This document shows, in pieces, positions 8,274-39,058 of a stretch of 64,000 bases of DNA. Under the pieces are notes generated by a model that made no database searches, was not told where the DNA came from, and saw only the letters and a list, made by a program, of their open reading frames with translations. A program made the translations under genes and the position numbers. Within the stretch, counting starts at the first letter, position 1. Each line of letters opens with the position of its first letter. Source of the DNA: Candidatus Latescibacterota bacterium (GTDB lineage Bacteria > Latescibacterota > UBA2968 > UBA8231); NCBI GenBank assembly GCA_965215195.1, contig CBDCDC010000002.1:3840001-3904000 (forward strand), in the 5' to 3' direction.

Positions 8274-9287
8274 ATGATTATATCCCAAATAGCTGTCCAC
8301 CGGCCCGCCGGTCTGTTGCGCATTCTGACCGACACAGGCCTAGAAGGTCGCTGTACTGATGTTGCGGCCACGGTCGCCGAGGCCGATGTGGCCGCGGCGG
8401 CCTCCATCCTCATCAAGGCGAATCCCATCGATCGCGAACGGATATGGCGGGCGTTCAATGAAGTGGACGGAGGGGTGCCTTCCGATCTCCGTGCCTGCAT
8501 TGACGTCGCCTTGTGGGACCTCACGGCCAAGGCCGCTGGCCAGCCAGTGCATCGGCATGTCAACGGCTTTCGCAACCGCATTCCGGTTTGCAGGAGGGGT
8601 GCCGAGCGAAACTCGGCCGCAGAGATCGTCGAGGAAGCAAAGGAAGCGCAGCGGGCAGGTTTCCGGGGGTACAAATTCGACGCCCTTTTGGACGAAGAGT
8701 CGCTCGTCAACCTGATACGCGACGTGCGCCGGGCCGTAGGAGCGGATTTCTGCCTGTTGTTCGACGGCCGGACGCGGTGGGTCATTGACCAAGCGATACG
8801 GATCGGCCGGGCGCTCGACGCCGCGGACTTTTTCTGTTTTGACCAGCCGCGGCCCGACCGCGATATGTCCGGCGGGCGGCAGGTAGCCGCCGCAATAGAT
8901 ACCCCGACCAGCATGGGTGTGTCCAGTCCCATGGAAGCGGCCCAGGTCATGGCGGCCCAGGCGGCCGACCACATCCGCACCGGGGCAACGCGAGCCGGCG
9001 GCATGACGGATGTGCTCAAGGCCGCCCGCTGTGCCGAAGCCTTCGGGGCCTACTGCCATCTGGACGGTTCCGGGATATGCGACGGTTTCGCCCATCTGCA
9101 TCTGGCGGGCACCATTCGCAATACGCCCTTCTTGGAAGTATCCGCGGGACCGTCCTCTGCGCCGTTCATGGAGAATCCGCTGCAGATATGCGATGGGTAC
9201 ATTCAGATTCCCGCTGCGCCGGGACTGGGCATGGAGATCGACATGGGCGTCGTCGGCGAACACACCACGGAACTGATTCAGATCTGA
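8274..9287 (+). CDS. Mandelate racemase/muconate lactonizing enzyme (enolase superfamily), degenerate active site
   Basis: 'IDVALWDLTAKAAGQPV', 'GFRGYK', C-terminal 'GYIQIPAAPGLGMEID'. Confidence 0.85.
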   Translation: MIISQIAVHRPAGLLRILTDTGLEGRCTDVAATVAEADVAAAASILIKANPIDRERIWRAFNEVDGGVPSDLRACIDVALWDLTAKAAGQPVHRHVNGFRNRIPVCRRGAERNSAAEIVEEAKEAQRAGFRGYKFDALLDEESLVNLIRDVRRAVGADFCLLFDGRTRWVIDQAIRIGRALDAADFFCFDQPRPDRDMSGGRQVAAAIDTPTSMGVSSPMEAAQVMAAQAADHIRTGATRAGGMTDVLKAARCAEAFGAYCHLDGSGICDGFAHLHLAGTIRNTPFLEVSAGPSSAPFMENPLQICDGYIQIPAAPGLGMEIDMGVVGEHTTELIQI

Positions 9288-26374: not shown

Positions 26375-26653
26375 ATGATCCGCAGCTTCAGAGACCGAAA
26401 GACCCAGCGTTTTTTTGCCGGTCATCACGTCGCAGAGTTCCAAGGATTCGCCAACCAAGCCACGCGTCGTCTTGCTTATCTGGACAGCGCGGAGTCCCTT
26501 CAGGATCTGGCTAACTTGCCGAGCAACCGCCTAGAGGCGTTGCGGGGAAATCGAGCCGGCTGGCACAGCATTCGGATCAATCGGCAATGGCGGATATGCT
26601 TCCGCTGGAGGGACAATGAGCCTTTTGACGTAGAGATCGTGGACTATCACTAA
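26375..26653 (+). CDS. higB: HigB / RelE-family toxin (plasmid maintenance killer)
   Basis: 'MIRSFRDRKTQRFF...PSNRLEALRGNRAGWHSIRINRQWRICFRW...VEIVDYH'. Confidence 0.92.
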   Translation: MIRSFRDRKTQRFFAGHHVAEFQGFANQATRRLAYLDSAESLQDLANLPSNRLEALRGNRAGWHSIRINRQWRICFRWRDNEPFDVEIVDYH

Positions 26654-26667
26654 CTGGGAGTAAGGAC

Positions 26668-26973
26668 ATGAGCGCAAAGAACGGTATGAGACCGGTGCAT
26701 CCGGGCGAGATATTGTGTGAGGAACTCGATACGCTCGACCTGTCGGCCAATGAATTGGCTACGGCGCTGGATGTGTCGCCGAACTGCATCACTGCAATCC
26801 TCAACGGTCAGCGCGACGTAACTGCCGACATCGCGCTTAGACTAGCGCGCTATTTCGGGACGACGCCACAGGTCTGGTTGAACCTGCAGAAGACCTACGA
26901 ACTGCGCCGAGCCGAGATCGATATAGGCCAGCGCATCGCCGAGCGCGTGCAACCTCGGCGGATAATGGCGTAG
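26668..26973 (+). CDS. higA: HigA family antitoxin (HTH)
   Basis: 'RPVHPGEIL', 'TADIALRLARYFGTTPQVWLNLQKTYEL'. Confidence 0.92.
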   Translation: MSAKNGMRPVHPGEILCEELDTLDLSANELATALDVSPNCITAILNGQRDVTADIALRLARYFGTTPQVWLNLQKTYELRRAEIDIGQRIAERVQPRRIMA

Positions 26974-26976
26974 AGG

Positions 26977-28551
26977 ATGCGAAACACAATGACGACAACG
27001 CCACGGACCAACAGCGCCACCACTGGCTACGAGTCCGAGCTGTGGCAGATGGCCGACGCCCTGCGGGGCAGCATGGACGCGGCCGAGTACAAGCACATCG
27101 TCCTCGGCCTCATCTTCCTCAAGTACATTTCCGATGCCTTTGAGGAAGCATACACCCGGCTGGAGGCCGAGCGCAGCGCTGGAGCCGATCCCGAGGACCC
27201 GGACGAGTACCGCGCCGAGAACATCTTCTGGGTGCCTGTCGAGGCCCGCTGGTCTCGCCTCAAGGAGCAGGCGCGGCAGCCCACCATCGGCCAAGTTGTG
27301 GACGCGGCCATGGCCGGCATTGAGCGCGATAATCCCGCCCTCGAGGACGTGCTGCCCAAGGACTACGCTCGCCCCGTATTGGACAAGCAGCGCCTTGGAC
27401 AGCTCATAGACCTCGTGAGCAATATCGCCGTTGGCGACGCCGAGGCTCGCGCCAAGGATGTGCTGGGCCGGGTGTACGAGTACTTCCTTTCTCAGTTTGC
27501 CAGCGCCGAAGGCAAGCGAGGCGGCGAGTTCTACACCCCGCGCAGCGTAGTCAAGCTCCTCGTCGAGATGCTGGAGCCTTATCGGGGCCGGGTCTATGAT
27601 CCCTGCTGCGGCTCCTCGGGCATGTTCGTCCAGTCGATGGAATTCATCGAAGCCCATGCCTCGGGCAACGGCAACGGCGGTAGTGCCCGCTCTGACATCT
27701 CCATCTACGGTCAAGAGTCCAACTACACTACTTGGCGGCTGGCCAAGATGAACTTGGCGATCCGGGGCATTGAGGGTCAGATTGCCCACGGCGACAGCTT
27801 CCACAACGACCGCCATCCCGACTTGAAGGCCGACTTCATCCTCGCCAATCCGCCGTTCAACATCTCGGATTGGGGCGGCGAGCGCCTGCAAGACGACCCG
27901 CGCTGGCAGTTCGGGGCACCGCCAAAGGGCAACGCCAACTTCGCTTGGGTGCAGCACATCGTCCACCACCTCGCGCCCACGGGCGCGGCCGGCTTTGTGT
28001 TGGCCAATGGCTCTATGTCGTCCAACCAGTCGAGAGAGGGAGACATCAGAAAGAATCTGATAGAAGCCGACTTGGTAGATTGCATGGTCGCGCTGCCCGG
28101 CCAGCTTTTTTATTCCACCCAGATACCGGCCTGCCTCTGGTTCTTGTCCCGCAACCGGCGCACTCACCGCGACCGCCGGGGCGAGATGCTGTTTATCGAC
28201 GCGAGGAAGCTCGGTTGGATGGTGGATCGCACCCACCGCGATTTTGCACCAGAGGACATTGCCCGCATTGCCAGTGCGTATCGCGCTTGGAGAGGCGAGG
28301 AGGGGGCAGGCGACTACGAAGACGTTCCCGGCTTTTGCAAGAGCGCGTCGTTGGACGAGGTCCGCAAGCACGGCTACGTCCTCACCCCGGGCCGCTACGT
28401 TGGTGCCGAGGTACAGGAAGACGATGGGGAGCCTTTCGCCGAGAAGATGCAGCGGCTTGCGGCGCAGTGGCGACAGCAGCAGGCCGAGGGTGTTCGGTTG
28501 GACGCGGCTATTGACGCGAATTTGGAGAAGTTGGGGTTTGGCAAAAGATGA
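26977..28551 (+). CDS. hsdM: Type I restriction-modification methyltransferase subunit
   Basis: '[19 protein letters not shown]', 'GEFYTP', '[11 protein letters not shown]', 'NPPFN', 'LTPGRYVG'. Confidence 0.95.
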
Positions 28552-30301
28552 TGCATATAAACACATAAACACAGAAGATATCAGACGCCAACTCGATTTG
28601 GGGGAGGATAGCTACTGGGAGTTCAAGCAGGTCGAGTTCCGCGCCGATCGTCCGACTGCACCCAAACGAGACGATTTGGCAGATGAAATAGCGGCTTTTG
28701 CCAATACTGGCGGCGGTGTGCTGCTCTGTGGTGTCTCTGATGACGGTGCAGTACAGGGCATGTCGCGAGAACAAATGAACGCTTTGGAACGCATGGTCGT
28801 CGAGTTGTGTGCCCACTCGATCAAGCCGGCGCTCTTCGACGTAGCCATTACGCGCCACGAACTCGACGACAAAGCACTGTTGGTCGTCTCAGTAGCCAAA
28901 GGCACCGCCCAGCACGACAGTCCGGGTGGCAGCTTCCGGCGCGTCGGTAGTTCCAAACGACAGATGGCCAGCGCTGAGCGCATGCGCTTGGCTCAACAGC
29001 GCGGCCAAGCGCGTTATCGCTGGTTCGACGAGCAGCCCGTGCCGGATACCGGGTTCCGCACACTGGACGAAACACTTTGGAAACCGCTGCTCAGCGTGGG
29101 CGGGCGGGCCGATCCCGAAATGGCACTGGAAAAACTCGCCCTGTTGGGCAGGGATGAGGACGGTGCAATGCGAGCCACGGTGGCGGGGATTCTCCTGTGT
29201 ACCCACGCGCCTGAGGAGTGGCTTCCCAACGCTTGCATTACCGCGACCCACTATCGCGGTGCGGATCGGGCCTCCGGCCAATTCGATGCGCGGATCATCA
29301 CGGGTCCGATCAACCAACAGGTGGCGGACGCAATGGCCTTTGTGATGCGCAACATGCGCTTCGGGGCGTACAAGAAACCTGCCCGCCTAGACCTTCCGCA
29401 GTACAGTGCCGAAGCGCTTTTCGAGGCGTTGGTGAATGCCGTCGCCCATCGGGACTATTCGATCCGCGGCAGCCGGATTCGAGTGTCCATGTTTGCCGGC
29501 CGCCTAGAAATCAATTCGCCGGGTGGGCTGGCCAACAACCTCACCATTGACAGCATGGCAGCTCGGCAAGCGACGCGCAACGAAACCATCGCATCCGCGC
29601 TCGGACGAATGCCCGTTGGCGACATTCCCGGGTCTGAAAAGCGTCAATTCTTCATGGAGCGTCGCGGCGATGGTGTTCCCATTATCCTGCGCGAGACCGA
29701 GGCGTTGAGCGGGAACCCTCCTACGTATTGGCTGCTTGATGAGTCAGACCTCTTCCTGACGCTGCCCGCCGCGGCCACGAATGCCACGCCAGCCACTGTC
29801 GCGGTGACGGTGCGTCGAGATGGTCGCCCGCTCGCGGGTGCCGATTTGCTGGGGCTATTTCCCGACAACACTTGGCAACGAGCCACGACAGACGAGAACG
29901 GAGAAGCGGCGATGGACTTGTACGCGACGAACCTGCCCATGACTGTGTTCGTCGCCGCCAAGGGCTTTGCCGCACACCTTAAACGCGGGTGGGTCCCGGC
30001 GGATGGTGCGCTGGCCGTGGAACTCAAAGCCCTTTCCGGCGGCGGCGCAGTGATTTTTCCCGAGGCAACCGGTGCCATTCCGGGGCTCAAGGGGCAGCTC
30101 AATCCCATTCGCGGCCCCCATGACCGAACCTACCTCTATGCCTCGAACATCACCATCAACCACGGCGAGCACCAACCCGTTCACTTTTCTTTTGGTGAAG
30201 ACTTGCGGCTGATGGATGCCAATGGGGTCGAAATGTGGGGGCGCATCGTTCATATCGCAGGCAGATCATCACTGGTGGAGTATCGCGCAATAGAGCCGTG
30301 A
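28538..30301 (+). CDS. Schlafen/AlbA_2 domain + RecG-C-like (HATPase_c_4) protein with atypical β-rich C-terminus
   Basis: 'GEDSYWEFK', '[21 protein letters not shown]'; '[13 protein letters not shown]...LEINSPGGL', 'MERRGDGV'; TTG start overlapping hsdM. Confidence 0.8.
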
Positions 30302-30355
30302 AGCCAACGGCGCACAAATTGCCTTCGCTTGGATGGAGCGCATCGGCTGGCAGGC

Positions 30356-30389
30356 TTGACATCACTTAATAAGTAATTACTATAATTAC
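30356..30389 (+). promoter_or_regulatory. mazEF promoter with palindromic operator
   Basis: TTGACA at 30356; TACTAT/TATAAT at 30378-30386; inverted repeat GTAATTA-cta-TAATTAC at 30373-30389. Confidence 0.65.
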
Positions 30390-30419
30390 AATTATTCTTT
30401 TCAGGAGAAGCTCCAAGCA

Positions 30420-30662
30420 ATGGCAACCAGAGATGTCAAGCTAATCTCCATCGGCAACTCTAAGGGCATTCGTCTTCCCAAGGTCCTGTTGCAGAAATAC
30501 GGCTGGGGAGATTCCCTTGTCCTCGAAGAAACCGAAGAAGGAATTTTTCTGTACAGCAACGAAAAGAACAAGCTCTCTTGGCAAGAGACCTACCACGCCA
30601 TGGCGGCTGACCGCGAAGACTGGAGCGATCTCGACACTACGGTAGCTGACGGTCTCGATTGA
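30420..30662 (+). CDS. mazE: AbrB/MazE family antitoxin
   Basis: 'VKLISIGNSKGIRLPKVLL' AbrB signature; CAGGAG RBS. Confidence 0.88.
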   Translation: MATRDVKLISIGNSKGIRLPKVLLQKYGWGDSLVLEETEEGIFLYSNEKNKLSWQETYHAMAADREDWSDLDTTVADGLD

Positions 30663-30668
30663 TGATTG

Positions 30669-31001
30669 ATGGCGGCTTTTCCGAGGCGATACGCCATCTA
30701 CTTTGCCGATCTCAATCCCACTGTGGGGGGAGAAATCCGCAAGGTGCGTCCGGTGGTTGTGGTCAGTCAGAATGAGATGAATCAGTTTGTCGACACGGTC
30801 GTCGTCTGCCCTCTCACCTCCGCGTTGCATCCTCAGTGGCGTAGCCGGCTGCAAATCCAATGTGCGGGCAAGAAAGCTGAAATTGCCGTGGACCAGATTC
30901 GCACCATCAGCAAACAGCGGCTGAGGGACCAGATCGACAAATTGTCTGCCGAGGCAGCGGCCCAACTCCGTCGCCTTATTACGGAGATGTACGGAGAATA
31001 G
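30669..31001 (+). CDS. mazF: PemK/MazF family toxin
   Basis: 'ADLNPTVGGEIRKVRPVVVVS', 'VVCPLTS', 'DQIRTISKQRL'. Confidence 0.92.
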   Translation: MAAFPRRYAIYFADLNPTVGGEIRKVRPVVVVSQNEMNQFVDTVVVCPLTSALHPQWRSRLQIQCAGKKAEIAVDQIRTISKQRLRDQIDKLSAEAAAQLRRLITEMYGE

Positions 31002-31044
31002 CGATCTAATCAAGTGTAGAGGAAAAGTGAATCGGCAGTGAAAC

Positions 31045-31269
31045 ATGAACATTAACACTGAATTCCTCACTCGCTGCATCCGCACTTTAGAGATGGCGTT
31101 GGAGCAGTTGCAACAGTACGATGTGGACGATATCTCCTACGACATCCGCAACGACACGGCGCACCAATACGGCGAGGGCTTCGCCGAGACGACGCTCAAG
31201 CTGCTGCCCCGCTTCATAGCCGACGCCAAGGAATTAGCTCGGGTCATAACGGAGGGATCGCATGCCTGA
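31045..31269 (+). pseudogene. HEPN (HI0074-like nucleotidyltransferase substrate-binding) toxin with apparent in-frame internal deletion
   Basis: N-terminal helix 'FLTRCIRTLE' joined directly to the RX4HXY motif 'RNDTAHQY'; only 74 aa, lacking the family's central 'KEFE...' helices. Confidence 0.7.
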
Positions 31270-32992
31270 GCGTCTGGACTTGCCGCGCCGCTACCGGGAT
31301 CAGATCGAGGCCCTGCTACACGAGCACGTGCCCGGCGTGGAGGTGTGGGCTTACGGCAGCCGCGTCAGTGGCAGAAGCCACGAGGGCAGTGACTTGGACT
31401 TGGTGCTCAGAGGGCCGAGCCTGAAGCGGATACCGAGCGGCCAACTGGCGGATCTGATTGAGGCGTTGGAGGAGTCGAACGGCCCTATCCTTGTGCAGAC
31501 GCACGATTGGGCAAGGTTGCCGGAGCGCTCTCATTGGGAGATTGAGCGGGAGTATGTGGTGTTACAAGAGCAAGCGACGAATGAGCGCGATATTGAGGAT
31601 GGATGGCTAACCACGACCATCGGCGACTGCGCTGTACTCGTCCGCCAGATGGTTGCGCCATCGGCAGTAGGCGATGCCCCCTACATCGGTCTTGAACATA
31701 TCGGAGAGAACACTCTTCATCTTACAGACAATGGCGTAGCAAGCGATGTTGCCAGTACAAAAGCACAATTCCAACGCGGCGACATTCTTTTCGGAAAGTT
31801 GCGCCCATATTTTCGCAAGGTTGTTAGAGCACCTTTTGATGGCATTTGCTCCACAGACATTTGGGTTGTCCGCGCTCAAAAGAGTGTAGAGCAAGGATTT
31901 CTCTACTATTGCATGGCAAATCAGCCGTTTGTTGAGTTTGCGACATCTGGCTCCGAAGGCACTCGAATGCCGCGAGCAAATTGGGAGTATGTATCGCAAT
32001 ACGAAATCCCCCTCCCACCTCTTCCCGAACAACGCGCCATCGCCCACATCCTCGGCACTCTCGACGACAAGATCGAACTCAACCGGCGCATGAATGAGAC
32101 GCTGGAGGAGATGGCGCGGGCGCTGTTCAAGTCGTGGTTCGTGGATTTTGAGCCGGTTCGCGCCAAAGCCGCACTCAAGCACCCCCAGAGCACCCCCAGA
32201 GGGGGGAGTGATGGGAGTGTGGAGCGGGAAGGTATTGATGCGGCGACTGCCCAAGGGGGGCGGGATTGGACGGTGGAACGCGCCCGTGCGTATCTCGACG
32301 AGATGGATCCGAGCATTGCGGCGTTGTTTCCCGATCATTTTGTCGATTCGGAATTGGGGGAAGTGCCGGCAGGGTGGGGAGTTGGATGCTTTGGGGATAT
32401 AGTTGATCAGGTCCGCGATAAGGAAAACCCGCTCGCTTCTCCAGATACCGTCTTCCGCCATTTCAGTATTCCGGCCTTCGATAAAGACCAATGGCCACAG
32501 ACAGAGCATGGCGAAAATATCAAAAGTCAGAAATCGCGTGTACCGCCGGGAGTTATTTTGTTATCGAAGCTTAATCCAGAGATTGAGCGCGTCTGGTTCG
32601 TGGACGTGGCGTCTGATGAGAGGGCGATATGCTCAACCGAGTTCTTGGTTCTTCAAGCTCGACTGCCGTTCCAACGGAGCTACGTCTACTGCCTCGCACG
32701 CTCCCCGCTCTTCCGCCAGCAGATCGAATCTTTCGTGACAGGCACGTCGAAGAGTCACCAAAGGGCGCAGGTAGGAGCCGTTCTCGCCCTAGGAGCAACA
32801 ATACCATCGGCACCAGTCATTCACGCGTTTGACCAGCAAGCCTCGGCACTCTTGGACAGGAGTGTTGACTGCCGTAGAGAGACCACCAGCCTCGCCGCCC
32901 TGCGCGACACACTGCTGCCCAAGCTGGTGTCGGGCGAAATACGAGTGAACACGCGAGACGAAGAGAGCGAAGCGATAGGAAAGCACCAATGA
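31262..32992 (+). CDS. hsdS: Type I R-M specificity subunit with N-terminal MNT (minimal nucleotidyltransferase) domain
   Basis: aa 1-~103: 'VWAYGSRVSGRSHEGSDLDLV' (GSx10DxD). Then TRD1, conserved 'PPLPEQRAIAHILGTLDDKIELNRRMNETLEEMARALFKSWFVDF', TRD2 and 'LRDTLLPKLVSGE'. Confidence 0.92.
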   Translation: MPERLDLPRRYRDQIEALLHEHVPGVEVWAYGSRVSGRSHEGSDLDLVLRGPSLKRIPSGQLADLIEALEESNGPILVQTHDWARLPERSHWEIEREYVVLQEQATNERDIEDGWLTTTIGDCAVLVRQMVAPSAVGDAPYIGLEHIGENTLHLTDNGVASDVASTKAQFQRGDILFGKLRPYFRKVVRAPFDGICSTDIWVVRAQKSVEQGFLYYCMANQPFVEFATSGSEGTRMPRANWEYVSQYEIPLPPLPEQRAIAHILGTLDDKIELNRRMNETLEEMARALFKSWFVDFEPVRAKAALKHPQSTPRGGSDGSVEREGIDAATAQGGRDWTVERARAYLDEMDPSIAALFPDHFVDSELGEVPAGWGVGCFGDIVDQVRDKENPLASPDTVFRHFSIPAFDKDQWPQTEHGENIKSQKSRVPPGVILLSKLNPEIERVWFVDVASDERAICSTEFLVLQARLPFQRSYVYCLARSPLFRQQIESFVTGTSKSHQRAQVGAVLALGATIPSAPVIHAFDQQASALLDRSVDCRRETTSLAALRDTLLPKLVSGEIRVNTRDEESEAIGKHQ

Positions 32993-33915
32993 AATTTTCG
33001 CAAAGATGGTGGGTGGTCGTTGCCTTACTACTTGCGTTCGCAGTGACGGTGAGTTTTCTCTCCGCGCAAACAGAGGAACCTTCCGCTGTCGATGCCCCCA
33101 GCAGTGCAGAAGTCCAATTGAGTAGCGACGAACCCGAACAAAAGCAACCAGCGCTTGCATCGACTAGAGACACAGCCCCCGCCGCCGCTGTCGAGACTGA
33201 CCGCCGTTTCAACGAACTTCGGCGCGAGCTTCTCGACGACCGAGCGAAAATGATCGATAGGTGGCTTGAAGCGACAGCTATCTTCCTTACGTTGCTTGGC
33301 GTTGCTGCTGCAATTCTCGGCTATTTCGGTTTCAAAAGGCTCGATAGAATTGAGAGCGAAGCGCGTGAGAATATGGAAGCGTCTGAGAAACATGCGCAGG
33401 AAGCTCAACGCTATGAGGAGGAAACCCAACGCGATCTTGAAAAGGTCAAGGAGGAAGCCCGACGCTATGTTGAAGAGATCAAGACAATTCGTGACAAAAC
33501 CGAAATAGACCGGGCGTTCTCCGAGGCCATCCTGCTTCAGCAGCAAAACAGGATTGAGGAGGCCATTGAAAAATGGCGTTCTATCGCCAACATCACAGAA
33601 GGAACCGACGACGAGCGTGCGGCTGAAGCATGGTTTAACATCGGCTTCCTCACGTCTCCTAGGAATGTGAAGGGAGAGAATTTTGCAGGAGCAATTGCTG
33701 CCTATGACAAGGCGATTGAGTTAAACCTGAGTGGGCCGAATTTGCATTGGGCGTACTACAATCGAGGAAATGCAAAAACCAGTCTTGGACAAATCGAAGA
33801 GGCCATCGCCGACTACGGTGAAGCACTCAATTTAGCCCGATCAGTTGGCAACGCAGATTTGATGGAACGAGCAAGGCGTAACCTCGACAGTCTCGACAGG
33901 AGCGACTCTCTATGA
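32989..33915 (+). CDS. Membrane-anchored coiled-coil TPR protein
   Basis: N-terminal hydrophobic segment, second TM 'AIFLTLLGVAAAILGYFGF', charged coiled coil, TPRs 'AIAAYDKAIEL', 'AYYNRGNAK..LGQIEEAIADY'. Confidence 0.8.
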   Translation: MKFSQRWWVVVALLLAFAVTVSFLSAQTEEPSAVDAPSSAEVQLSSDEPEQKQPALASTRDTAPAAAVETDRRFNELRRELLDDRAKMIDRWLEATAIFLTLLGVAAAILGYFGFKRLDRIESEARENMEASEKHAQEAQRYEEETQRDLEKVKEEARRYVEEIKTIRDKTEIDRAFSEAILLQQQNRIEEAIEKWRSIANITEGTDDERAAEAWFNIGFLTSPRNVKGENFAGAIAAYDKAIELNLSGPNLHWAYYNRGNAKTSLGQIEEAIADYGEALNLARSVGNADLMERARRNLDSLDRSDSL

Positions 33916-33941
33916 CCACCATCACCGAAGCCGAGGTTCAA
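33912..33941 (+). pseudogene. Relic 5' end of an hsdR allele (MTTITEAEV)
   Basis: atgaccaccatcaccgaagccgaggttcaa vs live hsdR start atgaccaccctcaccgaagctgtcgtcgaa (35924); ATGA-coupled to the TPR stop. Confidence 0.7.
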
Positions 33942-34060
33942 CCGCTGCTTTTCATCTTTTAGGAGAGACCGCGTTGAGTCGTCCCTACGATCTAGACCGC
34001 CGCGAATCTGACTGTGAGCCCCTACGTGAAAAATGCTAAAAAGATGGCGGAGGCCATTGC

Positions 34061-34561
34061 ATGACCGACGCATTGCTGACAGTCCCCGACCAGAAATAAG
34101 CACTGTCCCTTGTCTATGCACAGGCAGTGGCGGCGCGTGCCGGTTATGTCACTGAAGTTCCCAACATGGATCGAGACAGCATTGATCTGTGCATCCGCGC
34201 CGGTGGTAGGATGCGGCCCTTGCTCGATTTGCAGTTGAAAGCTACCGTCAACTTGGAACGGCCTCTTGACGGATTCCTGCACTTCCCACTGGGCATCAAA
34301 AATTACAATGACCTGCGTATTGAAGCCCAGATCCTTCGGCTGCTCGTGGTGCTTGACTTGCCGCAAGACGAACAACGATGGATGACGATCACCCAAGATG
34401 AACTCATACTGAGACATCGGGCCTATTGGCTTAATCTGCGAGGATACGAAGAAACCGCTAACCAGTCGTCTGTTACCGTCCGCATCCCTGAAGAGAATCT
34501 GTTCAACGTCGAAGGTTTGCGTACGCTAATGGAACAATCAAGAAAAGGAGGGAACCGATGA
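34061..34561 (+). pseudogene. DUF4365 PD-(D/E)XK-like protein with nonsense codon at codon 13
   Basis: GGAGG RBS, then MTDALLTVPDQK*ALSLVYAQAVAARAGY (TAA 34097-34099); 'DRDSIDL', 'LDLQLKAT', 'KNYNDLR', 'AYWLNL'. Confidence 0.75.
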
Positions 34562-35700
34562 AAGTTAGTATCCAAGACAAGAAAGCCTTGCTTGCGGTTT
34601 CTCCTGCGGCGTTGTCTGCGTACGCTCGCACGGCCGGCTGGACCAAGGTCGATACCTACGGCAAGCATTCTGATGTATTTATGGGCGAGGGGCTGCCCGA
34701 GATCATTCTGCCGCGAACTGCACACTTGGGTGATTACGCCAGAGTCGTCTCGATGGTCGTTGAAATTTTCGCCAAGGTTGCCGACGTTGACGAACTTGCC
34801 CTCTATCGCGACTTGGCGATGGCTGACCGCGACGTGGTCCGCGTCCAAGCCGTTGATGGCGACGACAGCGGCAGCGTGGCAGTGAACGATGGGATCGATC
34901 TCCTGAGTGGCGCACGCGACATGATCCTCGCTGCCGCCTGCTCGCTCCAAGGGCCACAGCCCCTCTATCGTGCGGGTGCCAACCGAGAGGCTAGGGCCTA
35001 CCTGAACCGGGTTCGCTTGGGGCAGACCGAACAGGGTAGCTTCGCCATTACGCTGTTGAGTCCGGTTATTGCTCCCCCGATACAACAGCCGCTCTTTTCG
35101 GCGCTGGAATACGGCGATGACCCGATTGAGCGGCAGGTAACAAGGCGTCTGGCGGACGCGCTGGCAGCTACCTGCGAGGCGACCGAAAAAACGGTTGGCG
35201 GAGACGCTGGCGCTTTCTCGGAAGCCGTAGCGCATGGAGTGAGTGCCAATTTGTGCGAGGCACTCGTCAAGCTGATCGAGCCGTTCTCGATACTGGACAT
35301 CAGTCTGGTTTGGGCGCGCACACACCCGATGAGTACAGCCCGGAATGTCGTTCGCTTCGCCTCGCACGATGCTCCGATCCTGCGCGAGGCCGCGCGGTCA
35401 TTTCGCGACCGCGAACCACGACCGGATATGTGTCTGTTTGGCGTCGTGCAGAGGCTGAAACGCGACGAGACGGATACGAAAGGAACTATTGCCCTGCGGG
35501 CATCCATTGACGGGCAAAACCAAGTAGTTGTGGCCGTTCTAAAACAGTCCGATTACGAGCGAGCCATACAGGCTCACGAGACTAAGTCGCCGCTCGTCAT
35601 GGAGGGCGATCTCGAGCGAACCGGCCAACGCTGGCGATTGCTGAACCCGCGCATCGCAGATGTCATTCTGAATGAGGATGCGTCGGACGAGGACGAATAG
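34558..35700 (+). CDS. Hypothetical protein coupled to the DUF4365 gene
   Basis: 380 aa ORF with ATGA overlap; 'GQTEQGSFAITL', 'GVSANLCEAL', β-rich C-terminus. Confidence 0.8.
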   Translation: MKVSIQDKKALLAVSPAALSAYARTAGWTKVDTYGKHSDVFMGEGLPEIILPRTAHLGDYARVVSMVVEIFAKVADVDELALYRDLAMADRDVVRVQAVDGDDSGSVAVNDGIDLLSGARDMILAAACSLQGPQPLYRAGANREARAYLNRVRLGQTEQGSFAITLLSPVIAPPIQQPLFSALEYGDDPIERQVTRRLADALAATCEATEKTVGGDAGAFSEAVAHGVSANLCEALVKLIEPFSILDISLVWARTHPMSTARNVVRFASHDAPILREAARSFRDREPRPDMCLFGVVQRLKRDETDTKGTIALRASIDGQNQVVVAVLKQSDYERAIQAHETKSPLVMEGDLERTGQRWRLLNPRIADVILNEDASDEDE

Positions 35701-35747
35701 CCCATGTCTTGGGAAGGGTTGTATCATTACTCATAGGAGGTGTAGGA

Positions 35748-35855
35748 ATGGCAAACTGGGCGCAGTGCTCCGCAGTCAAACGCGACCCTAGTAAGCTCAG
35801 CGGGGCTTGGGTATTTCGCGGGACACGAGTGCCGGTATCGGCTCTATTCGAGTAA
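35748..35855 (+). pseudogene. Truncated DUF433 antitoxin-like gene
   Basis: AGGAGG upstream; [35 protein letters not shown] stops about half-way through a DUF433 domain. Confidence 0.75.
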
Positions 35856-35923
35856 CGCAGGCGGTCATGCGCGTATCTGCATCGACGCCGGACAAGCCGC
35901 CGCAAACCCCCACGGAAAGTCCC

Positions 35924-38900
35924 ATGACCACCCTCACCGAAGCTGTCGTCGAAGACGCCGCCCTCGCTTGGCTCGAAAGCCTCGGCTGGACGATTGCCCC
36001 CGGTGCTGCTGCCGCGGAGCGCACCTCCTACGGTCAGGTCGTCTTGGAGCAACGGCTGCGGGACGCCTTGACCCGGCTGAATCCCTCGCTACCCGCCAGT
36101 GCGCTAGACGACGCTTTCCGCAAGCTGACCCGCCCGGTAGGCGCGACCCTCGAAACGCGCAACCGCACCTTCCATCAGATGCTGGTAGAAGGCGTGACGG
36201 TCGAATATCGGGCCGACGACAGTTCGATCCGTGGAGCGCAAGCGCAGGTTGTCAATTTTGACGACGTGGCGGCCAACGACTGGCTCGCTGTCGATCAGTT
36301 CACGGTAGCCGAGAACCGGCATAACCGCCGCCCGGACATCGTGCTGTTCGTCAACGGCCTGCCGCTGGGAGTGATCGAACTCAAGAATCCAGCGGACGAA
36401 GACGCCACCATCTGGACCGCTTGGCAACAATTCCAGACCTACAAGGCCGAGTTGCCGACGCTGTTTGCGTTTAACGAACTGCTGATGGTGTCGGACGGAA
36501 TGCAGGCCCGCGTCGGTACGCTCACGGCCGGGCGGGAGTGGTTCAAGCCTTGGCGCACCATCACCGGCGAAGCGCTAGCCGACCCTAATAAGCCGGAGTT
36601 ACAGGTGGCCTTGGAGGGGGTCTGCGAGCCGGGGCGGTTCCTGGCCCTCGTGCGCGACTTCATCGCGTTTGAGGACGATGGTAGCGGTGCGCTCGTCAAG
36701 AAGATGGCCGGCTATCACCAGTACCACGCGGTCCGGGTCGCCGTGGGCGAGACCCTGCGTGCGGCCAAGCTGCAACGCACGGTCAAGCAGGTGGCCGAAG
36801 AGCGCGGGCGCTACGAATCGGGCCAAAAGCCCGGCGGCGAGCTGGGCGACCGGCGCATCGGCGTGGTCTGGCACACGCAAGGGTCGGGCAAAAGTCTGAC
36901 CATGGTCTTCTATGCCGGGCGCATCATTCGCGAACCGGCCATGGGCAACCCTACCATCGTCGTGCTCACCGACCGCAACGACCTCGACGACCAGCTCTTC
37001 GGCACGTTTGCGCACTGCCAAGACTTGCTGCGCCAGCCGCCGGTGCGGGCAGATAGCCGGGCCGACCTGCGTAACAAGCTCTCGGTCGAAGCGGGCGGCG
37101 TGGTCTTCACCACCATCCAGAAGTTTTTCCCCGAAGAGAAGGGCGACAGGCATCCGGTGCTTTCTCCGCGACCCAACATCGTGGTCATTGCCGATGAAGC
37201 GCACCGCAGCCAGTACGACTTCATCGACGGGTTCGCCCGCCACATGCGCGATGCATTGCCGTGCGCCTCCTTTGTTGGCTTTACCGGAACGCCTGTGGAG
37301 TTGCGGGACGCCAACACCCGCGCCGTGTTCGGCGATTACATCAGTATCTACGACATTCAGCGCTCAGTCGAGGACGGGGCCACAGTGCCGATCTACTACG
37401 AGAGCCGCCTCGCTAAATTGGCCCTCGACGCGGGGGAGCGGCCGCGCATTGACCCGGGTTTTACAGAAGCCACCGAAGGCGAGGAAATCGAGCGCAAGGA
37501 AAAGCTCAAGGCCCGCTGGGCACAGCTAGAGGCCATCGTCGGCGCGGAGAAGCGCTTGCGGCTGATCGCCCAAGACATCGTAGAGCACTTTGGGCAACGC
37601 TTGGCAGCGTTGGACGGCAAGGCCATGATCGTCTGCATGAGCCGCCGCATTTGCATCGACCTCTACCGCGAACTGGTGCGCTTGCGCCCGGACTGGCACA
37701 GCGAGGACGACACGCAGGGAGCCGTCAAGGTGGTGATGACCGGCTCGGCGTCCGACCCGCTAGAATGGCAGCCGCACATCCGCAACAAGCCCCGGCGCGA
37801 GGCACTGGCCAAGCGGTTCCGCGACGCGGCCGATCCGTTCTGCGTCGTGCTGGTGCGCGACATGTGGCTGACGGGTTTTGACGCGCCGAGCCTGCATACG
37901 ATGTACGTCGATAAGCCCATGCGCGGTCATGGGCTGATGCAGGCGATTGCCCGCGTCAACCGCGTGTTCAAGGACAAGCCGGGCGGCTTGGTGGTGGATT
38001 ACCTCGGCTTGGCCCACGAGTTGAAAAGTGCCTTGGCTACCTACACCGAGAGCGGGGGCACCGGGCAGACCGCGCTCGATCAGGAGCAGGCGGTGGCGGC
38101 GATGCGGGAAAAGTACGAGGTCTGTTGCGGCCTGTTCTACGGATTCGATTGGTCGGCTTGGACCGCCGGTACGCCAGCAGAGAAGCTGGGCCTGTTGCCA
38201 TTGGCGCAGGAGCACATCTTGGCACAGGAAGACGGCAAGGCTCGCTGTGTGCAGGCCGTGCGGGCACTCTCGCAAGCCTTGGCCTTGGCCGTGCCGCACG
38301 AGGACGCGCTGTGCATCCGGGACGACGTGGGGTTCTTCCAAGCCGTGCAATCCGTGCTCGCCAAGCGCGCCCCCGGCAGCGCATGCTCCGAGGCGGAGAT
38401 GGACCACGCGGTGCGCCAGATCATCTCGCGGGCCGTGGCTTCCGAGGGGGTGATGGACCTCTTCGCCGCGGCCGGGCTGAATAAGCCGGACATTTCGGTA
38501 CTATCAGACGAGTTTTTGGCCGAGGTGAAGGGGATGCCCCAGCGCAATCTCGCCGTGGAGTTGTTGCAAAAGCTGCTCAAGGGCGAACTCGCTGCCCGCC
38601 GGCGGAAGAACGTGGTGCAAGCGCGCTCCTTCGGCGAGATGCTGGAGCAGACCCTGCGCCGCTATCAGAACCGGGCCATTGAGGCCGCGCAGGTAATTGA
38701 AGAACTGATCGGGCTTGCCAAGGAAATGCGCGAGGCCAACGCTCGCGGCGAGCAACTAGGTCTTGCTGAAGACGAGCTGGCCTTGTACGACGCGCTGGAG
38801 ACTAACGACAGCGCCGTCCAAGTCTTGGGCGATGAGACCCTGTGCCGCATAGCCCGCGAACTCGTCGAGACCGTCCGCAACAATGTCACTATCGACTGGA

Positions 38901-39058
38901 CGCTGCGGGAGAACGTGCGGGCGAAGCTGCGCGTGCTGGTTAAGCGCACGCTGAAACGCCATGGCTATCCGCCGGACAAGCAGGAAAACGCCACGAAGAC
39001 CGTCCTAACACAGGCCGAAGTGCTGTCGGAAGGATGGGCGGCCTACCCATGCCATTGA
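35924..39058 (+). CDS. hsdR: Type I restriction endonuclease subunit R
   Basis: '[20 protein letters not shown]', 'WHTQGSGKS', 'ADEAHRSQY', 'GFTGTP', 'MWLTGFD', 'QAIARVNR', 'GYPPDKQ'. Confidence 0.95.

Follow-up and report, generated by a model that had tools for sequence, protein, structure and literature searches.

Does a type I restriction–modification (R-M) operon hold a toxin in check through its own specificity subunit? The question is raised by a locus in a 64,000-nucleotide stretch of the genome of a Candidatus Latescibacterota bacterium (GenBank assembly GCA_965215195.1, contig CBDCDC010000002.1, positions 3,840,001 to 3,904,000 of the forward strand; this whole stretch is called the window below, and coordinates count from its first nucleotide), where an open reading frame (ORF) of HEPN type is followed by an hsdS gene whose product starts with a minimal nucleotidyltransferase (MNT) domain. 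A first-pass annotation, made from the letters of the DNA alone, had read the two genes as a HEPN toxin and an antitoxin fused to HsdS, and had proposed that toxin silencing could thereby depend on an intact R-M complex. We find that the window holds a cargo-laden type I R-M operon with a HEPN/MNT cassette of the HI0074/HI0073 type directly 5′ of hsdS, and that the MNT::HsdS fusion occurs in nature as a widespread, recurrent architecture, common in uncultured bacteria. In the window itself the toxin half is most likely dead, and the MNT domain on HsdS is most likely an orphan. The family-level result is solid; the window copy is degenerate.

In the HepT/MntA system, MntA uses its GSX10DXD motif to AMPylate the tyrosine of the RX4HXY motif, which blocks the RNase (Yao 2020, PMC7641770). 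The available text of that study counts PF08780/PF01909 pairs as class I HEPN/MNT, places HEPN/MNT pairs among those toxin–antitoxin (TA) modules that are most abundant and describes the condition for toxin release as unknown. That R-M operons can contain HEPN genes is well established, as is the PrrC paradigm, from the accessible parts of earlier work (PMC3710099, PMC3506569, PMC12707154), and defence-island reviews state, as far as their available text goes, that toxins are present in immunity loci from which antitoxins seemed to be missing (PMC3632139).

The MNT::HsdS fusion in the window

The ORF encoding the fusion contains no stop between the N-terminal nucleotidyltransferase domain and the HsdS body (Table 1). 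Residues 1–103 match NTP_transf_2 (PF01909-type; E = 3.6e-6, with 27.7 bits where the cut-off is 21) and the structure of HI0073 (PDB 1NO5, E = 1.3e-9). An AlphaFold2 (AF2) model of the full fusion, whose moderate predicted local distance difference test (pLDDT) value of 65 restricts its use to domain limits, places alpha/beta elements over residues 9–103. Within the catalytic motif, G32, S33 and D46 are invariant and D44 is nearly so in alignment A1, and all four are invariant in alignment A4. The linker between the MNT domain and the first target recognition domain (TRD1) differs in length among the fused homologues whose junction sequences were compared. The remainder of the protein matches Methylase_S (E = 2e-14), and since the PADLOC Specificity_I model (E = 4e-84) spans only residues 115–564, about 110 N-terminal residues are extra. 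This body contains two TRDs parted by conserved helical regions, as seen in alignment A1 and in the AF2 model, and hsdM and hsdR share both operon and strand with hsdS, which places the gene in a type I R-M system. Conservation in alignment A1 is strong over the MNT domain and both conserved regions of HsdS, and both TRDs vary freely, which is the pattern expected of a working HsdS family that exchanges its TRDs. The first-pass description of an N-terminal MNT domain of about 100 aa, in frame with TRD1 and with no stop between them, is thus borne out, and the GSX10DXD motif lies exactly where it had been placed.

The fusion is easily overlooked in public records. The deposited gene call (P0013, 529 aa), with Methylase_S as its only Pfam domain, starts at an internal GTG at position 31403, past the DxD, so that automated annotation hides the MNT domain. 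On its 5′ side the stop of the HEPN ORF overlaps the start of MNT::hsdS by 8 nt, and the same overlap geometry (9001 vs 9008) recurs in most related loci, which suggests translational coupling of the two genes. With regard to the features of class I HEPN/MNT pairs, the window thus has the GSX10DXD partner and two adjacent, presumably co-transcribed genes; an intact HEPN with RX4HXY is absent from the window and present in relatives, for example in locus L004 (L numbers denote related loci and P numbers proteins). The window MNT carries odd residues at conserved positions (V74G, F90S and R92W), and the ratio of nonsynonymous to synonymous substitution rates (dN/dS) is 0.32 between it and its closest relative, L004, as against 0.16 between L004 and L008. 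The higher value is compatible with some relaxed constraint, though no proof of it.

Distribution of the fusion

A protein search limited to sequences of 316–1008 aa was scored on residues 1–140, that is, the MNT domain plus the junction, at E <= 1e-3. Among 1477 candidates, 1026 proteins match this part, and since homologues match it down to an E-value of 4e-57, the fusion is not due to chance. Among the matches listed, 115 out of 120 carry PF01420 (Methylase_S), as counted by hand in a precomputed Pfam column. The concern voiced with the first-pass annotation, that the fusion might be unique to this assembly, does not survive these 1026 matches, and a lost stop codon or assembly accident peculiar to the window genome is rejected in view of the presence of the same fusion in hundreds of independent assemblies.

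In a genomic scan with one genome per species, the best 80 of 194 matches were kept and are referred to here as subfamily A loci. Their hosts belong to Latescibacterota, Chloroflexota, Binatota, Acidobacteriota, Pseudomonadota and others, and in the tree the closest neighbours of the window MNT are copies from Latescibacterota. When matches were clustered at 50% identity, the best 150 representatives comprised 49 of at least 430 aa, 54 of 166–429 aa and 47 of at most 165 aa. A second group of HEPN/MNT pairs, subfamily B, is about 35% identical; 56 of its 57 loci could be evaluated, and 33 of these encode MNT-B::HsdS, 29 of them with a full HEPN-B including the motif upstream. A sample of loci seeded with HsdM rather than with MNT (80 loci, HsdS visible downstream in 70) contains MNT::HsdS in 10 of the 70, including further MNT types and an MNT-C that is fused directly. 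When PLSDB plasmids were searched with the MNT-plus-junction query, a single record was returned, an unfused pair from Legionella adelaidensis at 38.6% identity; since only this one distant unfused pair appears, the fusion family was not found on PLSDB plasmids.

More complex arrangements were also encountered. Tandem MNT-C::MNT-A::HsdS triple fusions are encoded by L003 (8692-10500), L007, L045 (8680-10599) and L029, and in the MNT-C triple fusions the upstream HEPN is the partner of the outermost MNT only. Protein P0105 is an MNT-B::MNT-A::HsdS triple fusion. In P0237 (552 aa) an MNT-A-like domain stands at the C-terminal end (residues 450–545), and the N-terminal part resembles a P-loop ATPase.

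The truncated HEPN gene

The ORF upstream of MNT::hsdS has 74 codons as against 140 in relatives. It aligns to residues 1–34 plus 101–140 of the 140-aa homologues, with 91% identity to L004, and a DNA alignment with L004, L010 and L011 locates the difference in the loss of exactly 198 nt, in frame, corresponding to 66 codons (residues 35–100). In the full-length copies each break point is marked by an imperfect GACA(T/A)C repeat, which, as we read this alignment, may represent microhomology at the ends of the deletion. The remnant scores 15.9 bits on PF08780, where the cut-off is 31.8 and the full-length protein of L004 reaches 64.9 bits, and NCBIfam gives no match for the 74-codon ORF. A model of the full-length protein, HEPN-A (pLDDT 91.5), has helices at residues 6–22, 30–61, 65–69, 73–82, 88–103 and 110–135. 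By this model the deletion takes most of helix 2, almost the whole of helix 4 and the two short helices between them; what is left in the remnant is helix 1, the loop with RX4HXY and the final helix. No second copy of HEPN-A or MNT-A was found with these queries in the genome to which the window belongs (6.13 Mb, two contigs). The in-frame loss, the disappearance of the predicted docking surface (see below) and the lack of another copy together make it most likely that the toxin is dead here. What had been called a HEPN toxin gene therefore stands as regards the RNDTAHQY motif and the overlap with hsdS, and falls as regards an intact gene. Because the deletion is in frame, the overlapping stop and start are kept and translation of hsdS is preserved. 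Full-length copies of HEPN-A occur in four of 40 related genomes and truncations of other kinds in three, so that decay of the HEPN-A toxin is recurrent.

HEPN partners in related loci

In most related loci the gene just upstream, with the same 8-nt overlap, encodes a HI0074-type HEPN of about 140 aa (138–140). An intact HEPN-A, meaning one with RX4HXY, was found in 23 of the 37 subfamily A loci in which MNT is fused to HsdS, the others having a full-length copy with a changed motif (4), a partial copy (1) or none found (9). For the 14 loci with a free MNT followed by hsdS the corresponding figures are 9, 2, 3 and 0, for the 26 loci with no hsd genes nearby 18, 1, 4 and 3, and for the three with hsdM or hsdR near and no hsdS match 1, 0, 0 and 2. 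The search proposed with the first-pass annotation, for NTP_transf_2 plus Methylase_S architectures with an intact HEPN upstream inside hsd operons, thus yields such loci in both subfamilies, 23/37 in A and, as given above, 29/33 in B. Several of the loci scored as lacking HEPN-A deserve comment. L054 has a divergent full-length HEPN without the R or H of the motif, which was missed by the identity cut, and in L003, L007 and L045 a different HEPN precedes MNT-C::MNT-A::HsdS. The gene directly abutting MNT::hsdS is hsdM in L001, L013 and L031, and mazF in L026.

Some variation in the toxin slot and its motif was noted besides. L032 has a PIN gene (8589-9008, E = 2e-15) in the HEPN slot upstream of MNT::HsdS, and it is the only fused locus in which the first catalytic aspartate of the MNT is changed (D44N). 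The full-length HEPN-A of L044, L058 and L072 keeps R and H of the motif but has S, H or F in place of the tyrosine that is presumed to accept the AMP, and in L022 and L071 it is the R of the motif that is replaced.

In relatives, the upstream gene codes for a genuine HEPN of the NTase_sub_bind/HI0074 type. The PF08780 cut-off is exceeded by full-length HEPN-A, -B and -C alike, the HEPN-A profile matches HI0074 (PDB 1JOG) with an E-value of 2.3e-13, and the HEPN-A model superposes on 1JOG with a template modelling (TM) score of 0.77, with HepT-MntA complexes and AMPylated HEPN toxins among its further matches. When the MNT and HEPN-A of L004 were predicted as a complex, the score was 0.78, the best control reaching 0.07; 116 of 157 solved complexes attain the mark of 0.78, as do 2 of 215 mismatched pairs. 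At least 97% of the contacts are common to the runs, and the pLDDT of the partners is at least 84. On the HEPN side the predicted interface consists of residues 72–99, every one of which falls within the stretch that the window copy has lost, and on the MNT side it includes residues 70–77. Since HepT-MntA complexes have already been solved, the pair may pass because it resembles them, in which case the score would not be independent evidence. The first-pass assignment of the two domains, and the analogy with HepT/MntA that it drew, are upheld by the matches to 1JOG and 1NO5, by PF08780, by the structure matches and by the predicted docking.

Possible functions of the fusion

The best explanation of these observations, and in our judgement probably the correct one, is that the window carries an orphan MNT, and that at the family level a class I HepT/MntA-like pair is wired to HsdS. 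In the intact relatives, the HEPN RNase would be made first from the operon, and the translationally coupled MNT::HsdS would then AMPylate the tyrosine next to RX4H, holding the RNase off. With the antitoxin being part of HsdS, control of the toxin would be tied to continued synthesis of HsdS from the operon, and such control could serve as operon addiction or as an abortive back-up.

A number of observations weigh against this explanation. As regards the window, its MNT scores below the cut-off of 60 bits for the NCBIfam MntA_antitoxin equivalog NF047752 (22.4 bits for residues 1–103, 20.5 for the whole protein), and the HEPN remnant still has RX4HXY and an open frame, which leaves some room for residual function. 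As regards the family, fusion and toxin go together less tightly than an obligatory tether would have it. Parsimony on the subfamily A tree gives 19 changes between fused and unfused states, at least three of them forced by well-supported branches, and on a combined tree of 143 domains 34 changes, at least seven of them forced; both trees are poorly resolved and use about 100 columns. What sets a split form apart from a fused one is no more than a stop and then a start within -4 to +3 nt, and the same TRD1 can occur in both, as in L047 compared with L069 and L074. The share of loci with an intact HEPN is alike in all contexts (23/37 when fused, 9/14 when split and 18/26 without hsd genes). Such context-independence of HEPN and such frequent interconversion are better fitted by a loose coupling. 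In addition, 14 of the 37 fused subfamily A loci are without a motif-intact HEPN-A and yet keep the acidic residues of the MNT, the only exceptions among the 14 being L032 (D44N) and L035 (D82E). Between L003 and L007, both without HEPN-A, the dN/dS of the MNT is 0.16. Retention of the MNT after loss of the toxin hints at a role beyond the neutralization of a neighbouring toxin. Finally, the explanation combines what we observed (the fused architecture and how widely it occurs, the HEPN deletion and a predicted docking) with what we infer (that HEPN is toxic and becomes AMPylated, and whatever may trigger its release).

A single origin of the fusion was also considered; it is unsupported by the state changes on both of the poorly resolved trees.

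Among the alternatives, it is conceivable, though we regard it as doubtful, that the fusion came about by neutral compaction, the cassette landing between hsdM and hsdS and the loss of a stop then fusing coupled genes without functional effect, so that the MNT would be an ordinary antitoxin whether fused or free. The minimal difference between split and fused forms, the sharing of TRD1, the many state changes on the trees and the independence of HEPN integrity from context all agree with this, as does the amount of other cargo in the same operons (higBA, mazEF, the Schlafen-like gene and PDC-M02). It is less easily reconciled with the frequency of the fusion, which is found in 37 of 51 subfamily A and 33 of 39 subfamily B loci that have hsdS after the MNT, a high proportion for an accident. 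Moreover, in the loci examined the cassette always lies directly 5′ of hsdS and nowhere else in the operon, and the HsdS-borne MNT is under purifying selection after loss of HEPN.

The first-pass annotation went further than our preferred explanation in proposing a candidate toxin-guarded R-M system. Under this guard model the HsdS-tethered MNT would work only in an intact M2S or R2M2S complex, and phage proteins with anti-restriction activity, by disabling it, would halt AMPylation and set the HEPN RNase free for a PrrC-like abortive infection. Such a system cannot operate at this locus, where the HEPN gene is internally deleted and no intact copy was found elsewhere in the genome. For the family, it seems to us unlikely that AMPylation of HEPN depends on the state of the R-M complex and that anti-restriction or loss of HsdS would release an abortive RNase. 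The idea draws on the HEPN RNase genes found beside an HsdS-borne antitoxin in type I operons, at the frequencies given above for subfamilies A and B, and on the presence of several MNT subfamilies in the same position. There are precedents in PrrC and PARIS as guardians of R-M (PMC12707154 and PMC3710099, in their accessible parts), and the trigger of HepT/MntA is acknowledged as an open question in the available text of PMC7641770. Still, AMPylation is covalent, so that a blocked MNT would release no toxin beyond what is newly made. Unfused versions of the same pairs, whether split or free-standing, are common, and switches of state are frequent.

A function of the HsdS-borne MNT that is independent of the neighbouring HEPN is likewise improbable. 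The domain might nucleotidylate another target, for instance a phage protein, a subunit of Hsd or, in an anti-addiction role, a newly arriving HEPN toxin, or it might be needed for the folding or translation of HsdS. Apart from the 14 fused loci with conserved catalytic residues mentioned above, this would be in keeping with the loci in which hsdM or mazF directly abuts MNT::hsdS, with MNT dN/dS values that range from 0.06 to 0.34 with pairs without HEPN-A included, and with the tandem MNT-C::MNT-A::HsdS proteins, which keep MNT-A without HEPN-A. TA pairs, though, usually lose the toxin before the antitoxin. A cognate HEPN with the 8-nt overlap is present in most fused loci, the predicted docking is specific, and the V74G, F90S and R92W changes of the window MNT are as expected under relaxed constraint.

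That the fusion or the short HEPN ORF arose from sequencing or assembly error is very improbable, for although the assembly is of metagenome type (two contigs, 8.5% estimated contamination) and the deposited HsdS call begins at an internal GTG, hundreds of independent assemblies show the same fusion, the missing segment measures exactly 198 nt, keeps the frame and is bounded by imperfect 6-bp repeats, and HEPN truncations of other kinds occur in relatives.

The surrounding operon

The cassette belongs to one co-directional gene string that occupies positions 26375-39058 of the plus strand (Table 1). Because hsdM starts 4 nt past the stop of the HTH_3 antitoxin that partners higB, the operon may open with the higBA pair. 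Orthologues of the Schlafen-like protein occupy the same slot in many related hsd operons, and the protein is a possible further RNase-type effector. The mazEF genes lie directly upstream of the HEPN remnant, and the order mazEF-HEPN-MNT::hsdS is found also in L004, L010 and L011. Downstream, related TPR arrays follow hsdS in L002, L005, L029, L038 and L078, and the PDC-M02A/B pair between hsdS and hsdR is conserved in L004, L008, L009, L044, L057 and L070. No PADLOC model matches HEPN-A, the HEPN remnant, MazE or MazF. The two TRD segments (31600-31999 and 32400-32799) have a G+C content of 0.505 and 0.537, as against about 0.61 in the MNT and central conserved parts, and the cargo genes lie below hsdM and hsdR in G+C. 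This mosaic across hsdS and the cargo fits an exchange of modules.

Table 1. Features of the operon in the window, in order of position
Feature	Coordinates	Strand	Evidence or remarks
higB	26375-26653	+	HigB-like toxin, PF05015 E 8.6e-17
Helix-turn-helix antitoxin (HTH_3)	26668-26973	+	
hsdM, methyltransferase subunit, 524 aa	26977-28551	+	N6_Mtase E 1.6e-109; HsdM_N E 7e-26; PADLOC MTase_I E 2.9e-223
Schlafen/AlbA_2 + HATPase_c_4 protein, 585 aa	about 28544-30301	+	
mazE + mazF	30420-31001	+	PemK_toxin E 6e-26
HEPN (HI0074/NTase_sub_bind type) remnant, 74 codons	31045-31269	+	Alignment to 140-aa homologues
Deletion junction, between codons 34 and 35 (deletion at 31146/31147)	31141-31152	+	DNA alignment with L004, L010 and L011
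RX4HXY motif RNDTAHQY, kept in the remnant	31147-31170	+	Motif as defined in the available text of Yao 2020 (PMC7641770)
HEPN stop/MNT::hsdS start overlap, 8 nt	31262-31269	+	
MNT::hsdS, 576 aa	31262-32992	+	
MNT domain (HI0073-like), residues 1-103	31262-31570	+	NTP_transf_2, PDB 1NO5, AF2 model
GSX10DXD catalytic motif, G32-S33-x10-D44-L-D46	31355-31399	+	Sequence and alignments
D82, third conserved acidic residue	31505-31507	+	Invariant in alignments A1 and A4
MNT-TRD1 linker, residues 104-112	31571-31597	+	pLDDT <50 at residues 105-112
HsdS body: TRD1, central conserved helix, ~40-residue insert, TRD2, C-terminal conserved helix	31598-32992	+	
TPR protein, hydrophobic N-terminal stretch	32989-33915	+	Start overlaps hsdS stop
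DUF4365 + 380-aa protein, PADLOC candidate system PDC-M02A/B	34127-35700	+	E 5e-48, 1e-123
hsdR, restriction subunit	35807-39058	+	HSDR_N, SWI2_SNF2, T1RH-like_C; PADLOC REase_I 1097 bits; ORF measured from TTG, homology begins near residue 40

Comparison with known systems

A recurrent fusion of an enzymatic antitoxin with HsdS provides a concrete physical link between HEPN/MNT modules and type I R-M systems. Our literature search found no account of an MNT-HsdS fusion, nor any mention of one in the available portions of PMC3710099, PMC3632139, PMC3506569, PMC12839542, PMC8649781, PMC13000451, PMC12707154 and PMC4621449, though Figure 5 (with its 'RM_TRD' label) or Additional file 1 of PMC3710099 might depict one. 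Automated gene calls, as in the window, can conceal such fusions. If the guarding of R-M by the toxin were true after all, it would amount to a PrrC-like guard built from a type VII TA pair and would supply the missing trigger of HepT/MntA. For the window genome itself the message is an ordinary one, namely that the toxin half has decayed.

The nearest parallel in mechanism is HepT/MntA, a type VII TA system represented by SO_3166/SO_3165 of Shewanella oneidensis, which, in the accessible text of PMC7641770, likewise has an RX4HXY HEPN beside a GSX10DXD MNT. The HEPN-A model matches the HepT structures 7BXO, 6M6U and 5YEP, at 16–17% identity in the structural alignments. Unlike in HepT/MntA, the toxin gene here comes first and the antitoxin is the N-terminal domain of HsdS rather than a free protein of fewer than 150 aa, and in the window the toxin is internally deleted. 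By sequence, the closest solved relatives are HI0073/HI0074 of Haemophilus influenzae (PDB 1NO5 and 1JOG), whose PDB chains, in contrast to MNT::HsdS, are free proteins (146 and 114 residues). PrrC of the type Ic EcoprrI locus shares with the present loci a HEPN-fold RNase within an hsdMSR operon and the concept of a second-line suicide nuclease, as set out in the available parts of PMC3710099 and PMC12707154. PrrC carries a regulatory domain of the ABC-ATPase type, lacks an enzymatic antitoxin and is kept silent through its association with the Hsd complex, whereas HEPN-A is a single PF08780 domain of 140 aa with no N-terminal ABC-type NTPase and has an MNT partner fused to HsdS. Finally, FhepTA, a fused MNT-HEPN protein, resembles MNT::HsdS in that an MNT antitoxin is covalently joined to another protein, and in FhepTA the fusion alters the stability of the MNT domain, according to the available text of PMC13000451. 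In FhepTA the MNT is joined to its own toxin, while in the loci described here it is joined to an unrelated DNA-specificity subunit and the toxin is separate.

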